A DNA stretch of 64,000 bases from Escherichia coli (GTDB lineage: Bacteria; Pseudomonadota; Gammaproteobacteria; Enterobacterales; Enterobacteriaceae): assembly GCF_044324875.1 (NCBI RefSeq), contig NZ_CP172185.1; one strand, given 5' to 3'. The position numbers and the translations under genes are program-made. Positions 8,116 to 62,336 of the stretch are shown piece after piece (the stretch's first letter is position 1; every line of letters begins with the position of its first letter). The notes below the pieces were generated by a model. It was not told the DNA's origin. It worked only from the letters and a program-made list of their open reading frames with translations, and did not search any database.

Positions 8116-8300
8116 AGTGGCTCATTCACCGACTTATGTCAGCCCCTTCGGGACGTGCTACATAAAATTCGAATGACGCACAACAAGGTGCCTGCCGTCC
8201 AACTTCTGATATCAGCGTAGCTATATCAACCATCGGGCGAAACGTCGAGTTAGGCACCGCCTTATTCCATAACAAAGCCGGGTAATTCCCGGCTTTGTTG
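8116..8300 (+). ncRNA. glmY: GlmY small regulatory RNA
   Basis: About 185 nt from the sigma54 start (AGTGGCTCATTCACCGAC...) to an intrinsic terminator with a perfect 12-bp stem AACAAAGCCGGG/CCCGGCTTTGTT (8271-8299); sits immediately upstream of glrK as expected. Confidence 0.85.
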
Positions 8301-26433: not shown

Positions 26434-26987
26434 TTTTTTTCCAGGAGATGCTCCTGCATGGCTTTCAGATATGCATTTTCTGCGCGAAGATAACGCAGCT
26501 CATTCTTCATCTCTTCCGGCGTCATGTTTGCCTCGTTTTCATGGGTATCATCAGAACGGGTCATGCTTTTCTCCTTCCAGCGCCTGATAAAGGCCTCATT
26601 ACCAGATTTGCGGTAGCCTTTTATCCAGTTTTTAACCGTGTTGTGGCTGGGAATGTTAAACCGGGCAGCTACCCGGGGTAGAGACTCAGAATGCCCGAGA
26701 GCATAAAGAACCACGCAAAGTTTATCTTCAGGAGAATAGCTACGCTTGTGTCTGCAATCCAGTGCCCGAGGACCGTGAAGAAGAAAAAGATTAATCCAGT
26801 GTGAGAGGCTGGTGTGAGAAAGTTGAAAGAGTTTTGCCGTAGAAATGATGCCTGCATGACCGGCCAGGTAATGATTTACAGCGGCAAGTTTTACTTCAAA
26901 TGAATGTTTCATAAACTGCACCTTCAGATGTCAGATTATGTCCAACATTTGGGGTGCAGTTCATTCACGCCGCATCCGGCATCTTTC

Positions 26988-38173: not shown

Positions 38174-38182
38174 CAGTGGTTG

Positions 38183-38268
<86 letters not shown>

Positions 38269-38442: not shown

Positions 38443-38931
38443 ATGAGACTGACATCTAAAGGGCGCTATGCCGTGACCGCAATGCTTGACGTTGCGCTCA
38501 ACTCTGAAGCGGGCCCGGTACCGTTGGCTGATATTTCCGAACGTCAGGGAATTTCCCTTTCTTATCTGGAACAACTGTTTTCCCGTCTGCGTAAAAATGG
38601 TCTGGTTTCCAGCGTACGTGGACCAGGCGGTGGTTATCTGTTAGGCAAAGATGCCAGCAGCATCGCCGTTGGCGAAGTGATTAGCGCCGTTGACGAATCT
38701 GTAGATGCCACCCGTTGTCAGGGTAAAGGCGGCTGCCAGGGCGGCGATAAATGCCTGACCCACGCGCTGTGGCGTGATTTGAGCGACCGTCTCACCGGTT
38801 TTCTCAACAACATTACTTTAGGCGAACTGGTTAATAACCAGGAAGTGCTGGATGTGTCTGGTCGTCAGCATGCTCACGACGCGCCACGCACCCGCACACA
38901 AGACGCGATCGACGTTAAGTTACGCGCTTAA
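38443..38931 (+). CDS. iscR: Fe-S cluster assembly transcriptional regulator IscR
   Basis: 162-aa Rrf2-family protein [19 protein letters not shown]...; cluster-ligand cysteines C92/C98/C104. Confidence 0.97.
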
Positions 38932-38950
38932 TAAAAAGTATTCAGAATCA

Positions 38951-39027
38951 GGCCGGAGTGTTTAACACTCCGTAAACACGGTCGTACATCCAGCCGGTAG
39001 CCTGGTTCCTTGCATTGAGTGATGTAC
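38951..39027 (+). promoter_or_regulatory. structured iscR-iscS intergenic region (stem-loops preceding the iscS ribosome-binding site)
   Basis: Hairpins CGGAGTG-ttta-ACACTCCG and GTACATC...GATGTAC; established site of RyhB-dependent differential stability of the isc mRNA (coordinates approximate). Confidence 0.45.
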
Positions 39028-39042
39028 GGAGTTTATAGAGCA

Positions 39043-40257
39043 ATGAAATTACCGATTTATCTCGACTACTCCGCAACCACGCCGGTGGACCCGCGTGTTG
39101 CCGAGAAAATGATGCAGTTTATGACGATGGACGGAACCTTTGGTAACCCGGCCTCCCGTTCTCACCGTTTCGGCTGGCAGGCTGAAGAAGCGGTTGATAT
39201 CGCCCGTAATCAGATTGCAGATCTGGTCGGCGCTGACCCGCGTGAAATCGTCTTTACCTCTGGTGCAACCGAATCTGACAACCTGGCGATCAAAGGTGCA
39301 GCCAACTTTTATCAGAAAAAAGGCAAGCACATCATCACCAGCAAAACCGAACACAAAGCGGTACTGGATACCTGCCGTCAGCTGGAGCGCGAAGGTTTCG
39401 AAGTCACCTACCTGGCACCGCAGCGTAACGGCATTATCGACCTGAAAGAACTTGAAGCAGCGATGCGTGACGACACCATCCTCGTTTCTATCATGCACGT
39501 GAATAACGAAATCGGCGTGGTGCAGGATATCGCGGCTATCGGCGAAATGTGCCGTGCTCGCGGCATTATCTATCACGTTGATGCAACCCAGAGCGTGGGC
39601 AAACTGCCTATCGACCTGAGCCAGTTGAAAGTTGACCTGATGTCATTCTCCGGTCACAAAATCTATGGCCCGAAAGGTATCGGTGCGCTGTATGTGCGTC
39701 GTAAACCGCGCGTACGCATCGAAGCGCAAATGCACGGCGGCGGTCACGAGCGCGGTATGCGTTCCGGCACTCTGCCTGTTCACCAGATCGTTGGTATGGG
39801 CGAAGCCTATCGCATCGCAAAAGAAGAGATGGCGACCGAGATGGAACGTCTGCGCGGCCTGCGTAACCGTCTGTGGAACGGCATCAAAGATATCGAAGAA
39901 GTTTACCTGAACGGTGACCTGGAACACGGTGCGCCGAACATTCTCAACGTCAGCTTCAACTACGTTGAAGGTGAGTCGCTGATTATGGCGCTGAAAGACC
40001 TCGCGGTTTCTTCAGGTTCCGCCTGTACGTCAGCAAGCCTCGAACCGTCCTACGTGCTGCGCGCGCTGGGGCTGAACGACGAGCTGGCACATAGCTCTAT
40101 CCGTTTCTCTTTAGGTCGTTTTACTACTGAAGAAGAGATCGACTACACCATCGAGTTAGTTCGTAAATCCATCGGTCGTCTGCGTGACCTTTCTCCGCTG
40201 TGGGAAATGTACAAGCAGGGCGTGGATCTGAACAGCATCGAATGGGCTCATCATTAA
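39043..40257 (+). CDS. iscS: cysteine desulfurase IscS
   Basis: 404-aa [17 protein letters not shown]...; PLP-lysine [12 protein letters not shown]; active-site SSGSACTS. Confidence 0.97.
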
Positions 40258-41638: not shown

Positions 41639-43489
41639 ATGGCCTTATTACAAATTAGTGAACCTGGTTTGAGTGCTGCGCCGCATCAGCGTCGTCTGGC
41701 GGCCGGTATTGACCTGGGCACAACCAACTCGCTGGTGGCGACAGTGCGCAGCGGTCAGGCCGAAACGTTAGCCGACCATGAAGGCCGTCACCTGCTGCCG
41801 TCTGTTGTTCACTATCAACAGCAAGGGCATTCGGTGGGTTATGACGCGCGTACTAACGCCGCGCTCGATACCGCCAACACCATTAGTTCTGTTAAACGCC
41901 TGATGGGGCGCTCGCTGGCTGATATCCAGCAACGCTATCCACATTTGCCTTATCAATTCCAGGCCAGCGAAAACGGCCTGCCGATGATTGAAACGGCGGC
42001 GGGGCTGCTGAACCCGGTGCGCGTTTCTGCGGACATCCTCAAAGCACTGGCGGCGCGGGCAACTGAAGCCCTGGCAGGCGAGCTGGATGGTGTCGTTATC
42101 ACCGTTCCGGCGTACTTTGACGATGCCCAGCGTCAGGGCACCAAAGACGCGGCGCGTCTGGCGGGCCTTCACGTCCTGCGCTTACTTAACGAACCGACCG
42201 CTGCGGCTATCGCCTACGGGCTGGATTCCGGTCAGGAAGGCGTGATCGCTGTTTATGACCTCGGCGGCGGGACGTTTGATATTTCCATTCTGCGCTTAAG
42301 TCGCGGCGTGTTTGAAGTGCTGGCGACCGGCGGTGATTCCGCGCTCGGCGGCGATGATTTCGACCATCTGCTGGCGGATTATATTCGCGAGCAGGCGGGC
42401 ATTCCTGATCGTAGCGATAACCGCGTTCAGCGTGAACTGCTGGATGCTGCCATTGCGGCCAAAATCGCGCTGAGCGATGCGGACTCCGTGACCGTTAACG
42501 TTGCGGGCTGGCAGGGCGAAATCAGCCGTGAACAATTCAACGAACTGATCGCGCCACTGGTAAAACGAACCTTACTGGCTTGTCGTCGTGCGCTGAAAGA
42601 CGCTGGCGTAGAAGCTGATGAAGTGCTGGAAGTGGTGATGGTTGGCGGTTCTACCCGCGTGCCGCTGGTGCGTGAACGGGTGGGCGAATTTTTCGGTCGT
42701 CCACCGCTGACTTCTATCGACCCGGATAAAGTCGTCGCTATTGGCGCGGCGATTCAGGCGGATATTCTGGTGGGTAACAAGCCGGACAGCGAAATGCTGT
42801 TGCTGGATGTGATCCCGCTGTCGCTGGGCCTCGAGACCATGGGCGGCCTGGTGGAGAAAGTGATCCCGCGTAATACCACGATTCCGGTGGCGCGCGCCCA
42901 GGATTTCACCACCTTTAAAGATGGTCAGACGGCAATGTCTATCCATGTGATGCAGGGTGAACGTGAACTGGTGCAGGACTGCCGCTCGCTGGCGCGTTTT
43001 GCACTGCGTGGTATCCCGGCGCTACCGGCTGGCGGCGCGCATATTCGCGTAACGTTCCAGGTCGATGCCGACGGTCTTTTGAGCGTGACGGCGATGGAGA
43101 AATCCACCGGCGTTGAGGCGTCTATTCAGGTCAAACCGTCTTACGGTCTGACCGATAGCGAAATCGCTTCGATGATCAAAGACTCAATGAGCTATGCCGA
43201 GCAGGACGTAAAAGCCCGTATGCTGGCAGAACAAAAAGTAGAAGCGGCGCGTGTGCTGGAAAGTCTGCACGGCGCGCTGGCTGCTGATGCCGCGCTGTTA
43301 AGCACCGCAGAGCGTCAGGTCATTGACGATGCTGCCGCTCACCTGAGTGAAGTGGCGCAGGGCGATGATGTTGACGCTATCGAACAAGCGATTAAAAACG
43401 TAGACAAACAAACCCAGGATTTCGCCGCTCGCCGCATGGACCAGTCGGTTCGTCGTGCGCTGAAAGGCCATTCCGTGGACGAGGTTTAA
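41639..43489 (+). CDS. hscA: Hsp70-type chaperone HscA
   Basis: 616-aa [13 protein letters not shown]... with Hsp70 motifs GIDLGTTNS and DLGGGTFD. Confidence 0.95.
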
Positions 43490-44074: not shown

Positions 44075-44200
44075 TGCGCTCGTTCACCCCAGTCACATAG
44101 TTATCTATGCTCCTGGGGCTTCACTCACTTGCCGCGTGATTCGGCCTTTTGGCCTCACCCCTCCGGGGCCAGCGCAAGCGCTGTTCAAAACGCAATGCGT
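44075..44200. repeat. ERIC/IRU repeat element
   Basis: CGCTCGTTCACCCCAGTCAC...ATGCTCCTGGGGCTTCAC match both ERIC primer-site cores (reverse complement of AAGTAAGTGACTGGGGTGAGCG, and ATGTAAGCTCCTGGGGATTCAC); imperfect palindrome in the iscX-pepB spacer. Confidence 0.7.
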
Positions 44201-44282
44201 TTTGTCCTGCAACGCGAATCATTTAGCGGAAAAATCCTGGGGCTGCCAACTGGCGGCCCTTTTACAAAGAAGGATAACTAAA

Positions 44283-45708: not shown

Positions 45709-46485
45709 ATGTCCGAAACAAAAAATGAACTTGAAGACCTGCTGGAAAAAGCAGCAACCGAACCGGCGCACCGCCCGGCCTTTTTCCGTACTCTACTGGA
45801 ATCCACCGTCTGGGTGCCGGGTACGGCGGCGCAGGGCGAGGCTGTGGTTGAAGATAGCGCGCTTGATTTACAGCACTGGGAAAAAGAAGACGGCACCAGC
45901 GTCATTCCTTTTTTTACCTCGTTAGAAGCACTTCAACAGGCGGTTGAAGACGAACAGGCATTTGTCGTAATGCCCGTTCGCACATTGTTTGAGATGACCC
46001 TTGGCGAAACGCTCTTCCTTAATGCCAAACTGCCAACCGGTAAAGAATTTATGCCGCGTGAAATCAGTTTGTTGATTGGTGAAGAAGGAAATCCGCTGAG
46101 CAGCCAGGAAGTACTGGAGGGCGGTGAATCGCTGATATTATCGGAAGTCGCAGAGCCACCAGCACAAATGATTGATTCTCTCACCACCTTATTTAAAACT
46201 ATTAAGCCGGTGAAGCGTGCTTTTATTTGTTCAATTAAAGAGAACGAAGAGTCACAGCCTAATTTACTTATTGGCATTGAAGCCGATGGTGATATCGAAG
46301 AAATTATTCAGGCGGCGGGAAGTGTAGCGACCGATACATTACCTGGCGATGAACCCATCGATATTTGTCAGGTGAAAAAAGGGGAAAAAGGAATTAGCCA
46401 CTTTATTACCGAACATATTGCGCCATTCTATGAACGTCGCTGGGGTGGTTTTTTGCGTGACTTTAAACAGCATCGGATAATCTAA
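45709..46485 (+). CDS. sseB: enhanced serine sensitivity protein SseB
   Basis: 258-aa ORF MSETKNELEDLLEKAATEPAHRPAFF...; synteny between pepB and sseA. Confidence 0.85.
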   Translation: MSETKNELEDLLEKAATEPAHRPAFFRTLLESTVWVPGTAAQGEAVVEDSALDLQHWEKEDGTSVIPFFTSLEALQQAVEDEQAFVVMPVRTLFEMTLGETLFLNAKLPTGKEFMPREISLLIGEEGNPLSSQEVLEGGESLILSEVAEPPAQMIDSLTTLFKTIKPVKRAFICSIKENEESQPNLLIGIEADGDIEEIIQAAGSVATDTLPGDEPIDICQVKKGEKGISHFITEHIAPFYERRWGGFLRDFKQHRII

Positions 46486-46802
46486 AATATGCCGCCCCAA
46501 AGGGCGGCATTCGGGCTTACTTGCTGCTCTGAAGTTTGTTAACCACCAGTAAATTGTTGCCGGAGAGACTCCGGTTATTATTTACCTCGGTTAACAGCGC
46601 ACCAGAAACAATAAGTACGATACAAAAGCACCGTATCTTCATTGTGCGGTCCATGCGAAGACCGCATCACGACAGCACCACTGGCGATATTGCCGCGATA
46701 GCAAGCGCTGAGACGCGCTTGCTCTAACGGTCGCGGAACATCCTTTCCTTAAGCCAGCGCCCGCTTGCGAGACGGCGGAAAGGGCCGCAGTGGATAATAC
46801 AC
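46486..46802 (-). ncRNA. ryfA: RyfA-like RNA copy 1 (putative small-protein toxin mRNA, TimP/RyfA type); 5' end approximate
   Basis: Minus-strand unit between a promoter-like TTGTCA-16-TATTGT (about 46837-46810) and terminator hairpin ATGCCGCCCTTTGGGGCGGCAT plus U-tract (46510-46486); about 310 nt; leader has SD-sequestering CCTTTCC/GGAAAGG stem. Confidence 0.6.
46517..46654 (-). CDS. hypothetical 45-aa small protein with hydrophobic N-terminal segment (candidate type I toxin)
   Basis: ORF MDRTMKIRCFCIVLIVSGALLTEVNNNRSLSGNNLLVVNKLQSSK verified codon by codon; identical in copy 2 except the last residues; no strong Shine-Dalgarno, so start codon uncertain. Confidence 0.35.
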   Translation of the reverse strand: MDRTMKIRCFCIVLIVSGALLTEVNNNRSLSGNNLLVVNKLQSSK

Positions 46803-46865: not shown

Positions 46866-46962
46866 CGCTGAGACGCGCTTGCATTACTACGGTAATACAA
46901 CCTGCTGGAAAGGCCGCGAACCGGACCAGCAACAAAAAACCGCCTGATTTTGGCGGTTTTTT
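46866..46962 (+). ncRNA. putative sRNA 1, divergent from RyfA-like copy 1 (candidate antitoxin RNA, TimR-like)
   Basis: TTGACA (46831-46836) -17 bp- GAGTAT promoter; about 97 nt to intrinsic terminator AAAAAACCGCC-tgatttt-GGCGGTTTTTT (46935-46962); 5' 17 nt identical to the plus strand at 46706-46722. Confidence 0.5.
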
Positions 46963-47079
46963 GTTGTTTAAAGAAAGTGAATTTACATGTTCAAGTAATA
47001 TCTTTTATTGGTTAGTATTTTTAATATTAAGCGAAAATTGTTTATATTTGTCTGAATTCGGACTAATAAGCTAGGTTAT

Positions 47080-47163
47080 TTTATTACCGAACATATTGCG
47101 CCATTCTATGAACGTCGCTGGGGTGGTTTTTTGCGTGACTTTAAACAGAATGGGATAATTTAA
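47080..47163 (+). pseudogene. duplicated 3' fragment of sseB (about 27 C-terminal codons plus stop), non-functional remnant at the repeat junction
   Basis: TTTATTACCGAACATATTGCGCCATTCTATGAACGTCGCTGGGGTGGTTTTTTGCGTGACTTTAAACAG repeated from 46402-46470, followed by a diverged tail and TAA at 47161-47163. Confidence 0.8.
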
Positions 47164-47480
47164 AACATGCCGCCCCAAAGGGCGGCATTCGGGCTTACCT
47201 GCTGTTCTGAAGGTTGTTAACCACCAGTAAATTGTTGCCGGAGAGACTCCGGTTATTATTTACCTCGGTTAACAGCGCACCAGAAACAATAAGTACGATA
47301 CAAAAGCACCGTATCTTCATTGTGCGGTCCATGCGAAGACCGCATCACGACAGCACCACTGGCGATATTGCCGCGATAGCAAGCGCTGTGAAACACCTGC
47401 ATTTACGGCCATGGAACATCCTTTCCTTAAGCCAGCGCCCGTTTGCGAGACGGCGGAAAGGGCCGGTGTCGATAATACGC
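47164..47480 (-). ncRNA. ryfA: RyfA-like RNA copy 2; 5' end approximate
   Basis: Same architecture as copy 1, shifted by 678 bp; terminator hairpin at 47167-47188; leader diverged from copy 1. Confidence 0.6.
47195..47332 (-). CDS. hypothetical 45-aa small protein, paralogue of the 46517-46654 ORF
   Basis: Same ORF as copy 1 with three C-terminal substitutions (K to N, S to N, K to R); frame and length preserved. Confidence 0.35.
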   Translation of the reverse strand: MDRTMKIRCFCIVLIVSGALLTEVNNNRSLSGNNLLVVNNLQNSR

Positions 47481-59194: not shown

Positions 59195-60313
59195 ATGCAT
59201 AACCAGGCTCCAATTCAACGTAGAAAATCAACACGTATTTACGTTGGGAATGTGCCGATTGGCGATGGTGCTCCCATCGCCGTACAGTCCATGACCAATA
59301 CGCGTACGACAGACGTCGAAGCAACGGTCAATCAAATCAAGGCGTTGGAACGTGTTGGCGCTGATATCGTCCGTGTCTCAGTACCGACGATGGACGCGGC
59401 AGAAGCGTTCAAACTCATCAAACAGCAGGTTAACGTGCCGCTGGTGGCTGACATCCACTTCGACTATCGCATTGCGCTGAAAGTAGCGGAATACGGCGTC
59501 GATTGTCTGCGTATTAACCCTGGCAATATCGGTAATGAAGAGCGTATTCGCATGGTGGTTGACTGTGCGCGCGATAAAAACATTCCGATCCGTATTGGCG
59601 TTAACGCCGGATCGCTGGAAAAAGATCTGCAAGAAAAGTATGGCGAACCGACGCCGCAGGCGTTGCTGGAATCCGCCATGCGTCATGTTGATCATCTCGA
59701 TCGCTTGAACTTCGAACAGTTCAAAGTCAGCGTGAAAGCGTCAGACGTCTTCCTCGCTGTTGAGTCTTATCGTTTGCTGGCAAAACAGATCGATCAGCCG
59801 CTGCATCTGGGGATCACCGAAGCGGGTGGTGCGCGCAGCGGGGCGGTTAAATCCGCCATTGGTTTAGGTCTGCTGCTGTCTGAAGGCATTGGCGACACGC
59901 TGCGCGTATCGCTGGCGGCCGATCCGGTTGAAGAGATCAAAGTCGGTTTCGATATTTTGAAATCGCTGCGTATCCGTTCGCGCGGGATCAACTTCATCGC
60001 CTGTCCAACCTGTTCGCGTCAGGAGTTTGATGTTATCGGTACGGTTAACGCGCTGGAGCAACGCCTGGAAGATATCATCACTCCGATGGACGTTTCGATT
60101 ATCGGCTGTGTGGTGAATGGCCCAGGTGAGGCGCTGGTTTCTACACTCGGCGTCACCGGCGGTAACAAGAAAAGCGGCCTCTATGAAGATGGCGTGCGCA
60201 AAGACCGTCTGGACAACAACGATATGATCGACCAGCTGGAAGCGCGCATTCGTGCGAAAGCCAGTCAGCTGGACGAAGCGCGTCGAATTGACGTTCAGCA
60301 GGTTGAAAAATAA
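59195..60313 (+). CDS. ispG: 4-hydroxy-3-methylbut-2-enyl diphosphate synthase
   Basis: 372-aa [31 protein letters not shown]...; [4Fe-4S] cysteines CPTCSR...C. Confidence 0.95.
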
Positions 60314-60423
60314 TAACGTGATGGGAAGCGCCTCGCTTCCCGTGTATGATTGAACCCGCATGGCTCCCGAAACATTGAGGGAAGCGTTGAGGGTTCATTT
60401 TTATATTCAGAAAGAGAATAAAC

Positions 60424-61715: not shown

Positions 61716-62336
61716 GTGGAAATTTACGAGAACGAAAACGACCAGGTTGAAGCGGTTAAACGCTTTTTTGCTGAAAATGGCAAAGCACTGGCTGTTGGGG
61801 TGATTTTGGGCGTTGGTGCACTGATTGGCTGGCGCTACTGGAACAGCCATCAGGTTGATTCTGCACGCTCCGCTTCTCTTGCCTATCAAAATGCGGTTAC
61901 CGCAGTGAGCGAAGGCAAACCGGATAGCATCCCGGCGGCGGAAAAATTTGCTGCTGAAAATAAAAATACTTATGGTGCGCTGGCTTCTTTGGAACTTGCG
62001 CAGCAATTTGTTGACAAAAATGAACTAGAGAAAGCTGCCGCCCAGTTACAACAGGGGCTGGCAGACACGAGCGATGAAAATCTCAAAGCCGTGATAAATC
62101 TGCGTCTTGCTCGCGTTCAGGTTCAGCTCAAGCAGGCTGATGCCGCGCTGAAAACCCTTGATACCATCAAAGGTGAAGGGTGGGCTGCCATTGTTGCCGA
62201 CCTGCGTGGTGAAGCATTGCTGAGCAAAGGTGATAAGCAAGGTGCGCGTAGTGCATGGGAAGCAGGCGTGAAAAGCGATGTTACCCCGGCACTGAGCGAA
62301 ATGATGCAGATGAAAATTAATAATTTGTCCATCTGA
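61716..62336 (+). CDS. yfgM: membrane-anchored TPR-like protein YfgM
   Basis: 206-aa ORF with one N-terminal TM helix; synteny between hisS and bamB. Confidence 0.85.
   Translation: MEIYENENDQVEAVKRFFAENGKALAVGVILGVGALIGWRYWNSHQVDSARSASLAYQNAVTAVSEGKPDSIPAAEKFAAENKNTYGALASLELAQQFVDKNELEKAAAQLQQGLADTSDENLKAVINLRLARVQVQLKQADAALKTLDTIKGEGWAAIVADLRGEALLSKGDKQGARSAWEAGVKSDVTPALSEMMQMKINNLSI

Follow-up and report, generated by a model that had tools for sequence, protein, structure and literature searches.

The spacer between iscR and iscS in the analyzed window, a 64,000-nucleotide stretch of Escherichia coli DNA, is almost certainly the cis-acting iscR stability element of the iscRSUA mRNA. An Rfam scan of the whole window (cmscan) identified the spacer as RF01517, "iscRS, iscR stability element", with a score of 131.7 bits against a gathering score of 40 (E 5.9e-34), and the match at 38932–39041 (+) covers the full model, positions 1–110 of 110. 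It is located on the coding strand between the iscR stop and the iscS start, and the consensus helices form with evolutionary support in P2 and P2a and partly in P2b, while P1 and P3 are without covariation. The element is already known and curated, and the first-pass annotation, which had read the spacer as a structured region for differential control of the isc operon, was correct but ordinary; finding it again in E. coli adds nothing new and confirms that a genuine, curated cis-regulatory RNA was recognized with the right coordinates. The element is a classic example of how an sRNA can divide the expression of an operon. It links iron sensing by Fur and RyhB to whether the Isc or the Suf system is used for Fe-S assembly, and through this to aminoglycoside tolerance. 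The features that could refine the published structure model are a possible pseudoknot, a stabilizer stem restricted to Enterobacteriaceae as compared with the wider RyhB seed, and the polymorphism of a hairpin apex.

The genes around the spacer are suhB (on the minus strand), trmJ, iscR, iscS, iscU, iscA, hscB, and hscA. The first cistron of iscRSUA, iscR, which is the surviving part of the mRNA, occupies 38443–38931 (+), encodes 162 aa, ends with a TAA stop at 38929–38931, and is an ORF that carries the name iscR in identical E. coli records. The cysteine desulfurase gene iscS, the first cistron of the degraded part of the transcript, is an ORF at 39043–40257 (+), and E. coli records annotate its start at the ATG at 39043. 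From the iscR stop to this ATG, the spacer runs over 38932–39042 and measures 111 nt, the same length as in K-12 MG1655; the ORFs and the RefSeq annotation of identical E. coli loci, which gives the same iscR and iscS boundaries, agree exactly with the extent first assigned to it. A 701-bp query spanning the iscR-iscS junction was 100% identical to E. coli strain CFSAN018748, and of the 5426 complete E. coli genomes, 5424 contain this stretch once each, in every case annotated as iscR followed by iscS. The Shine-Dalgarno sequence of iscS, read from the sequence as GGAG at 39028–39031 (+), lies 11 nt upstream of the AUG and is unchanged in all 27 aligned species. The mechanically called iscS ORF opens at an in-frame GTG at 39019, which is 24 nt upstream of the ATG at 39043 and within the predicted RyhB pairing region; this GTG is taken as chance because no GGAG/AGGA-like Shine-Dalgarno motif is evident just upstream of it. 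A 42-aa minus-strand ORF at 38948–39076 was set aside because it lies within the Rfam element and the iscS start.

The spacer is more structured than expected by chance, as the folding check proposed with the first-pass annotation had anticipated. Its minimum free energy (MFE) is −32.6 kcal/mol, compared with −24.0 ± 3.4 kcal/mol for dinucleotide shuffles (z −2.51, with 4 of 200 shuffles as good), and the z-score becomes −3.37 when 30–40 nt of flanking sequence are included (0 of 200 as good). The claim of two stable hairpins upstream of the iscS ribosome-binding site held for the presence of stable structure but not for its form, which is one branched stem followed by a weak hairpin that overlaps the ribosome-binding site. 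The branched stabilizer stem, P2 (38945–39008, +), consists of 9 bp formed by 38945–38953 and 39000–39008 and encloses two hairpins, P2a and P2b. The strong apical hairpin P2a (38954–38972, +) reads GGAGUGU-UUA-ACACUCC in the window allele, and the weak side hairpin P2b (38976–38998, +), which belongs to the Rfam consensus structure, carries a 12-nt loop, UCGUACAUCCAG, that is the same in 20 of 27 species, unlike the P2a apex. The segment 38947–39006, comprising P2 without its two outermost pairs together with P2a and P2b, folds with −25.1 kcal/mol. In line with the protective role given to it in the literature, the branched P2 stem may act as a barrier to 3'-5' exonucleases and RNase E, sparing iscR. 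Downstream of it, the small and weak hairpin P3 (−6.7 kcal/mol) extends over 39007–39030 (+) in the MFE fold, with an Rfam core of 39011–39015 and 39022–39026, and overlaps the first bases of the iscS Shine-Dalgarno sequence. The outer helix P1 of the Rfam structure (38939–39033, +) pairs 38939–38943 with 39029–39033 and would sequester the GAG of the Shine-Dalgarno sequence. In the window allele, which has U at 38939 where K-12 has A, the outermost pair of P1 is disrupted, and cmscan flags a non-canonical pair. The MFE fold of the window allele accordingly contains P2, P2a, P2b, and an extended P3 but no P1, and among the alleles folded, P1 is present in those with A at 38939 and missing from the two with U (the window and Br112).

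The evolutionary evidence for this fold comes from a species sample collected by a pattern scan with the first 23 iscS codons of species-representative genomes, which returned at least 120 loci. For the main pairing test, 27 species were aligned with MAFFT, an alignment not fitted to structure, and the Rfam structure was scored on it. The structure is 89.9% paired, compared with 34–48% when the partners are slid, and both partners have changed in 12 pairs, where shuffles give 4.1 ± 1.3, none of 500 shuffles reaching any of the covariation measures. P2 accounts for much of this, with 98.8% of its cells paired and five of its nine pairs changed on both sides, and P2a is 92.3% paired with compensatory changes across genera in five of six pairs. 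Taken together, P2 and P2a are 92–99% paired and contain 10–11 pairs with compensatory changes across the alignments, and both the model-fitted alignment and RNAalifold agree with the MAFFT result. In the same 27 species and in both alignments, P1 shows no compensatory change (73–76% of cells paired) and P3 has no pair changed on both sides (85–89% of cells paired). The backing by covariation is therefore restricted to P2 and P2a.

A covariance model, R1, built from the 27 aligned species matches the window only once, at 38924–39054 with 141 bits. The full element was found by the covariance model in 28 among the 120 loci listed, all from Enterobacteriaceae genera, including Escherichia, Citrobacter, Enterobacter, Kluyvera, Pluralibacter, Kosakonia, Cedecea, Phytobacter, Shimwellia, and Mangrovibacter. 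In 12 more of the loci listed, from Serratia, Dickeya, Pectobacterium, Brenneria, Budvicia, and Providencia, the 3' part alone is present, comprising the Shine-Dalgarno sequence, RyhB site, and start of iscS. The length of the iscR-iscS spacer among the loci listed is 97–242 nt in Enterobacteriaceae sensu stricto, 48–68 nt in Serratia, Dickeya, Photorhabdus, Proteus, and Budvicia, and 9–45 nt in most Pseudomonadales, Oceanospirillales, and Betaproteobacteria. Four Citrobacter/Enterobacter loci (L005, L045, L051, and L072) have spacers of 239–242 nt with an insertion of about 127 nt directly after the iscR stop, and the core of this insertion, CCCCAGTCACTTACTTGATGTAAGCTCCTGGG, resembles the ERIC/IRU repeat consensus. 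Different extra hairpins follow the iscR stop in Kluyvera, Pluralibacter, Superficieibacter, Pseudocitrobacter, Phytobacter, and Shimwellia. Since inserts and hairpins that differ among genera are found at one and the same spot, the position immediately 5' of the element is a hot spot for insertions.

Within E. coli, the spacer is far more polymorphic than the flanking genes, and the variation is concentrated in the P2a apex and is compensatory. Against MG1655, the window has five substitutions among the 111 positions of the spacer, and the flanking coding sequence compared is identical. All five substitutions fall in the structured part (P1, P2, and P2a), and the segment 39006–39054, which includes the whole predicted RyhB pairing region, is identical to that of MG1655. 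A spacer at least 99% identical to the window allele is carried by 205 of 5424 genomes (3.8%), and in 1876 of the 5424 (35%) the identity is just 90–95%. The differences among six sampled alleles are limited to 38939 (T/A), the P2a apex, and 39005 (G/A), the last giving a U.G or a U-A pair in P2; no variation was seen among them from 39006 to past the iscS start. The P2a apex variants of these six alleles keep the pairing by U-A to C-G and G.U to G-C changes or carry a 5-nt loop insertion, and the folding energy of 38947–39006 ranges from −22.1 to −28.7 kcal/mol across the sampled alleles. This is the pattern expected for a purely structural helix beside a sequence-constrained segment. In the window allele, the substitutions make P2a slightly stronger, turn one P2 pair into a weaker U.G, and abolish the pair at the outer end of P1; despite them, the allele would be expected to behave like that of K-12.

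The sequence-constrained segment coincides with the predicted site of RyhB pairing. The ryhB gene is absent from the 64-kb window, but 5424 of 5426 complete E. coli genomes carry it, 5360 of them with at least 99% identity, and as a member of this species the source genome is expected to have it; the MG1655 sequence of RyhB was used here. RNAduplex was discarded for this purpose since, on long sequences, its duplexes were very long or dominated by the RyhB terminator, and a scan by windowed hybridization combined with RNAplfold-type opening energies was used instead. The best site in the neighborhood of 38700–39350 is a predicted pairing region of three blocks at 39019–39045 (+) with RyhB nt 40–66, for which the hybridization energy is −21.0 kcal/mol, the opening costs are 7.1 and 3.3 kcal/mol, and the total is −10.6 kcal/mol. 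In the prediction, block 1 is an 8-bp seed, GAGCAAUG at 39038–39045, paired with RyhB CAUUGCUC (nt 40–47) and covering the iscS AUG; block 2 pairs GGAGU at 39028–39032, the Shine-Dalgarno sequence, with RyhB nt 53–57; and block 3 pairs GUGAUG at 39019–39024 with nt 61–66. By itself, the seed reaches −10.1 kcal/mol, since nearly all of it is unpaired and its opening costs just 1.6 kcal/mol. The initiation region thus offers accessible complementarity to the RyhB core, and the check for RyhB pairing near the iscS start that had been proposed for this locus found the best site of the 650-nt neighborhood over both the Shine-Dalgarno sequence and the AUG. The RyhB nucleotides used, 40–66, fall within the known target-binding region of nt 34–76, in which seeds are found at nt 34–55, and the iscS-RyhB interaction was conserved in 74% of 19 enterobacterial species surveyed (PMC3495738).

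The energy of the predicted iscS site ranks 10th among 200 seeded sites on both strands of the whole window, and it is the sole site at a gene start among the ten best of the window, the others lying 258–1208 nt inside ORFs or antisense. As this energy rank is unremarkable, the case rests on identity with the characterized K-12 locus; the in-silico pairing fits the mechanism but would not by itself establish a target. The strongest predicted RyhB complementarities in the window, at 62258–62282 (+, −15.9 kcal/mol) and 42622–42640 (+, −14.8 kcal/mol, both including opening), are deep inside ORFs, the latter within hscA. The site at 42622–42640 was considered as the published hscA site of RyhB and ruled out, as the published site is the hscA Shine-Dalgarno sequence, and 62258–62282 does not match it either.

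The RyhB seed is distributed more broadly than the structure that precedes it. Of the loci listed that carry the full element, 26 of 28 retain GAGCAATG, as do 11 of the 12 that have the partial element; among the other loci with enough upstream sequence to be scored, it is retained in nine of 79. The RyhB seed is therefore more widespread than the stabilizer stem. In Serratia, Dickeya, and Photorhabdus (L020, L037, L058, L078, L086, L093, L006, L067, and others), the spacers are 48–68 nt long and without the P2 stabilizer stem, and the RyhB seed is kept as GAGCA directly before the ATG; GAUGUACGGAG is also kept in Serratia and Dickeya. If RyhB acts in these three genera, iscR might go unprotected.

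In E. coli K-12, Desnoyers and colleagues (EMBO Journal, 2009) reportedly demonstrated that RyhB induces the differential degradation of iscRSUA. Passages in later literature on the E. coli locus describe pairing of RyhB between iscR and iscS with inhibition of iscS translation (PMC12533949, PMC3089445, PMC11572966), RNase E-dependent degradation of the 3' part with protection of iscR by a stabilizing structure (PMC11572966), and a strong secondary structure of the spacer as accounting for the RyhB-dependent build-up of the iscR transcript (PMC12533949). A Northern blot described in one of these sources shows full-length iscRSUA mRNA, the level of which is reported to be lower after sRNA overexpression (PMC11572966). 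The literature on K-12 is thus the source for three points: that iscSUA is lost under RyhB, that the iscR fragment accumulates, and that the spacer structure is needed. The first-pass annotation had placed here the region in which RyhB pairing destabilizes iscSUA while leaving iscR intact, which agrees with these passages (PMC12533949, PMC11572966, PMC3089445). It had also proposed that the same mechanism operates in this sequence. This proposal is supported by the E. coli locus and by a pairing segment identical to that of K-12 MG1655; because the species and the pairing segment are the same, the mechanism can be transferred with high confidence. Under iron scarcity, ryhB would be released from repression by Fur, and RyhB together with Hfq would pair with the iscS initiation region, the seed GAGCAAUG lying over the AUG and further contacts at and just upstream of the Shine-Dalgarno sequence. 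The pairing would block ribosome loading on iscS, and the RNase E degradosome would remove the iscSUA part of the message. The decay would then halt at the stable P2/P2a stem immediately 5' of the pairing site, and the shorter iscR mRNA would persist and be translated, allowing apo-IscR to activate the suf operon.

In addition to the nested helices, a candidate pseudoknot (38982–39029, +) may involve the P2b loop. The loop sequence UCGUACAUC at 38982–38990 is complementary to GAUGUACGG at 39021–39029, which comprises the invariant 3' arm of P3 and the first two Shine-Dalgarno bases, and nested folding algorithms cannot report the helix because it would cross P2. The predicted duplex has −11.1 kcal/mol, and 23 of 2000 shuffles of loop and tail (1.2%) are as good; across the 27 species, 92.8% of cells are paired, compared with 21–47% when the partner is slid. 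Five of its pairs vary, on the loop side only and by wobble-compatible transitions (e.g., the Shimwellia loop GUGUAUU). Because the GAUGUACGG strand never varies, a compensatory test is not possible and the conservation shuffle control is uninformative. On these predictions, a pseudoknot that joins the conserved P2b loop to the segment bordering the iscS Shine-Dalgarno sequence and extending into it is a tentative proposal that we regard as possible but doubtful. If it forms, the pseudoknot would take the place of the weak P3, and the iscR fragment generated by RyhB would have its 3' end enclosed in a helix, giving a stronger block to exonucleases. Translation of iscS would be dampened as well, and the upstream part of the RyhB duplex would face competition from the knot. 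Such a knot would account for a P2b loop that is constrained in sequence, in contrast to a P2a apex that is free to drift.

The position of these structures at the iscS ribosome-binding site raises the alternative that the element is mainly a constitutive attenuator of iscS translation, in which P1, P3, or the candidate pseudoknot sequesters the Shine-Dalgarno sequence, the IscR:IscS ratio is set independently of RyhB, and RyhB pairing is secondary. This is unlikely to be the main function, although the GG of GGAG (39028–39029) is paired in every predicted fold, by P3 in the window allele and by P1 in alleles with A at 38939, and the P2b loop is complementary to 39021–39029. The helices on which it would depend, P1 and P3, lack compensatory support and are 73–89% paired across species, and the relevant passages of the literature assign the element to RyhB-dependent accumulation of iscR (PMC12533949, PMC11572966). 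Damping of iscS translation through sequestration of the Shine-Dalgarno sequence is compatible with the RyhB-dependent stabilization of iscR and is possible as an added function, not as a replacement. That the spacer structure splits the operon at the level of transcription, by an intrinsic terminator or attenuator or by a hidden internal promoter uncoupling iscR from iscSUA, is scarcely credible: there are stable GC-rich stems between the two cistrons, but no stem is followed by a U-tract, a motif scan of 38932–39042 found no terminator-like or sigma-70-like site, and the Northern blot described in PMC11572966 sees the full-length iscRSUA mRNA. With the motif scan of the spacer empty, both a terminator and an internal promoter were rejected.

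It is also very improbable that the spacer contains a REP-type repeated palindrome serving as a generic stabilizer of upstream mRNA, as in malE-malF, with no special link to RyhB, even though the function as a nuclease barrier is analogous and one paper calls the structure at the iscR 3' end a REP (PMC7038943). A search of 5424 E. coli genomes with sensitive blastn (E ≤ 10, near and distant modes) found one copy per genome, the R1 model matches the window once, and the element is tied to the conserved RyhB seed. The REP consensus pattern, beginning GCCKGATGCGRCG, matches the window at six places, all of them outside the spacer. Membership in the REP family was therefore rejected for a single-copy element without the consensus, which acts like a REP stabilizer but is no REP. 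The REP-consensus matches elsewhere in the window include those at 26968 and 45575 and an inverted pair at 38182–38194 (+) and 38253–38265 (−), with one mismatch each, between trmJ and the iscR promoter.

The iscR stability element reading places the spacer beside several known systems. In REP stabilizers inside operons, such as that of malE-malF, a stable stem in the polycistronic mRNA guards the upstream cistron from 3'-5' decay. The iscRS element resembles them as a stable intra-operon stem protecting the upstream cistron, but it is single-copy and its protection is relevant only after downstream decay has been triggered by an sRNA. The closest system is RF01517 iscRS of K-12 itself, with the same organism, locus, and length of 111 nt, a full-length model match, and an identical RyhB pairing segment; in comparison with K-12, the window allele has a remodeled P2a apex (−25.1 versus −22.7 kcal/mol for 38947–39006), U.G for U-A in P2, and a lost outermost P1 pair. 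RyhB-sodB and other RyhB targets at initiation regions share the use of the same RyhB core, with a seed in nt 34–55 over the start codon, whereas iscS is an internal cistron and the outcome is discoordinate, with the upstream cistron spared. Spot 42-galK and SgrS-manXYZ are alike in that an sRNA acts at an internal ribosome-binding site of a polycistronic mRNA (PMC3089445). In contrast to Spot 42-galK, the effect of which is described as translational (PMC3089445), the iscSUA part is degraded and a dedicated structure stabilizes iscR.

Other RNAs were matched by the Rfam scan in the window. Two full-length copies of the ryfA sRNA (313.6 and 319.2 bits) flank a match to the IS128 sRNA (210.6 bits), the ryfA/IS128/ryfA array lying on the minus strand at 46484–46788, 46920–47130, and 47162–47466, an arrangement that suggests a tandemly duplicated ryfA locus in this strain. 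GlmY is located at 8116–8263 (+, 147 bits) and sroE at 60313–60404 (+, 117 bits). A marginal match to Aggregatibacter sRNA 22 (45.3 bits versus a threshold of 39.8) is found at 44140–44212 (−), about 100 nt downstream of a region of about 67 codons that follows hscA.
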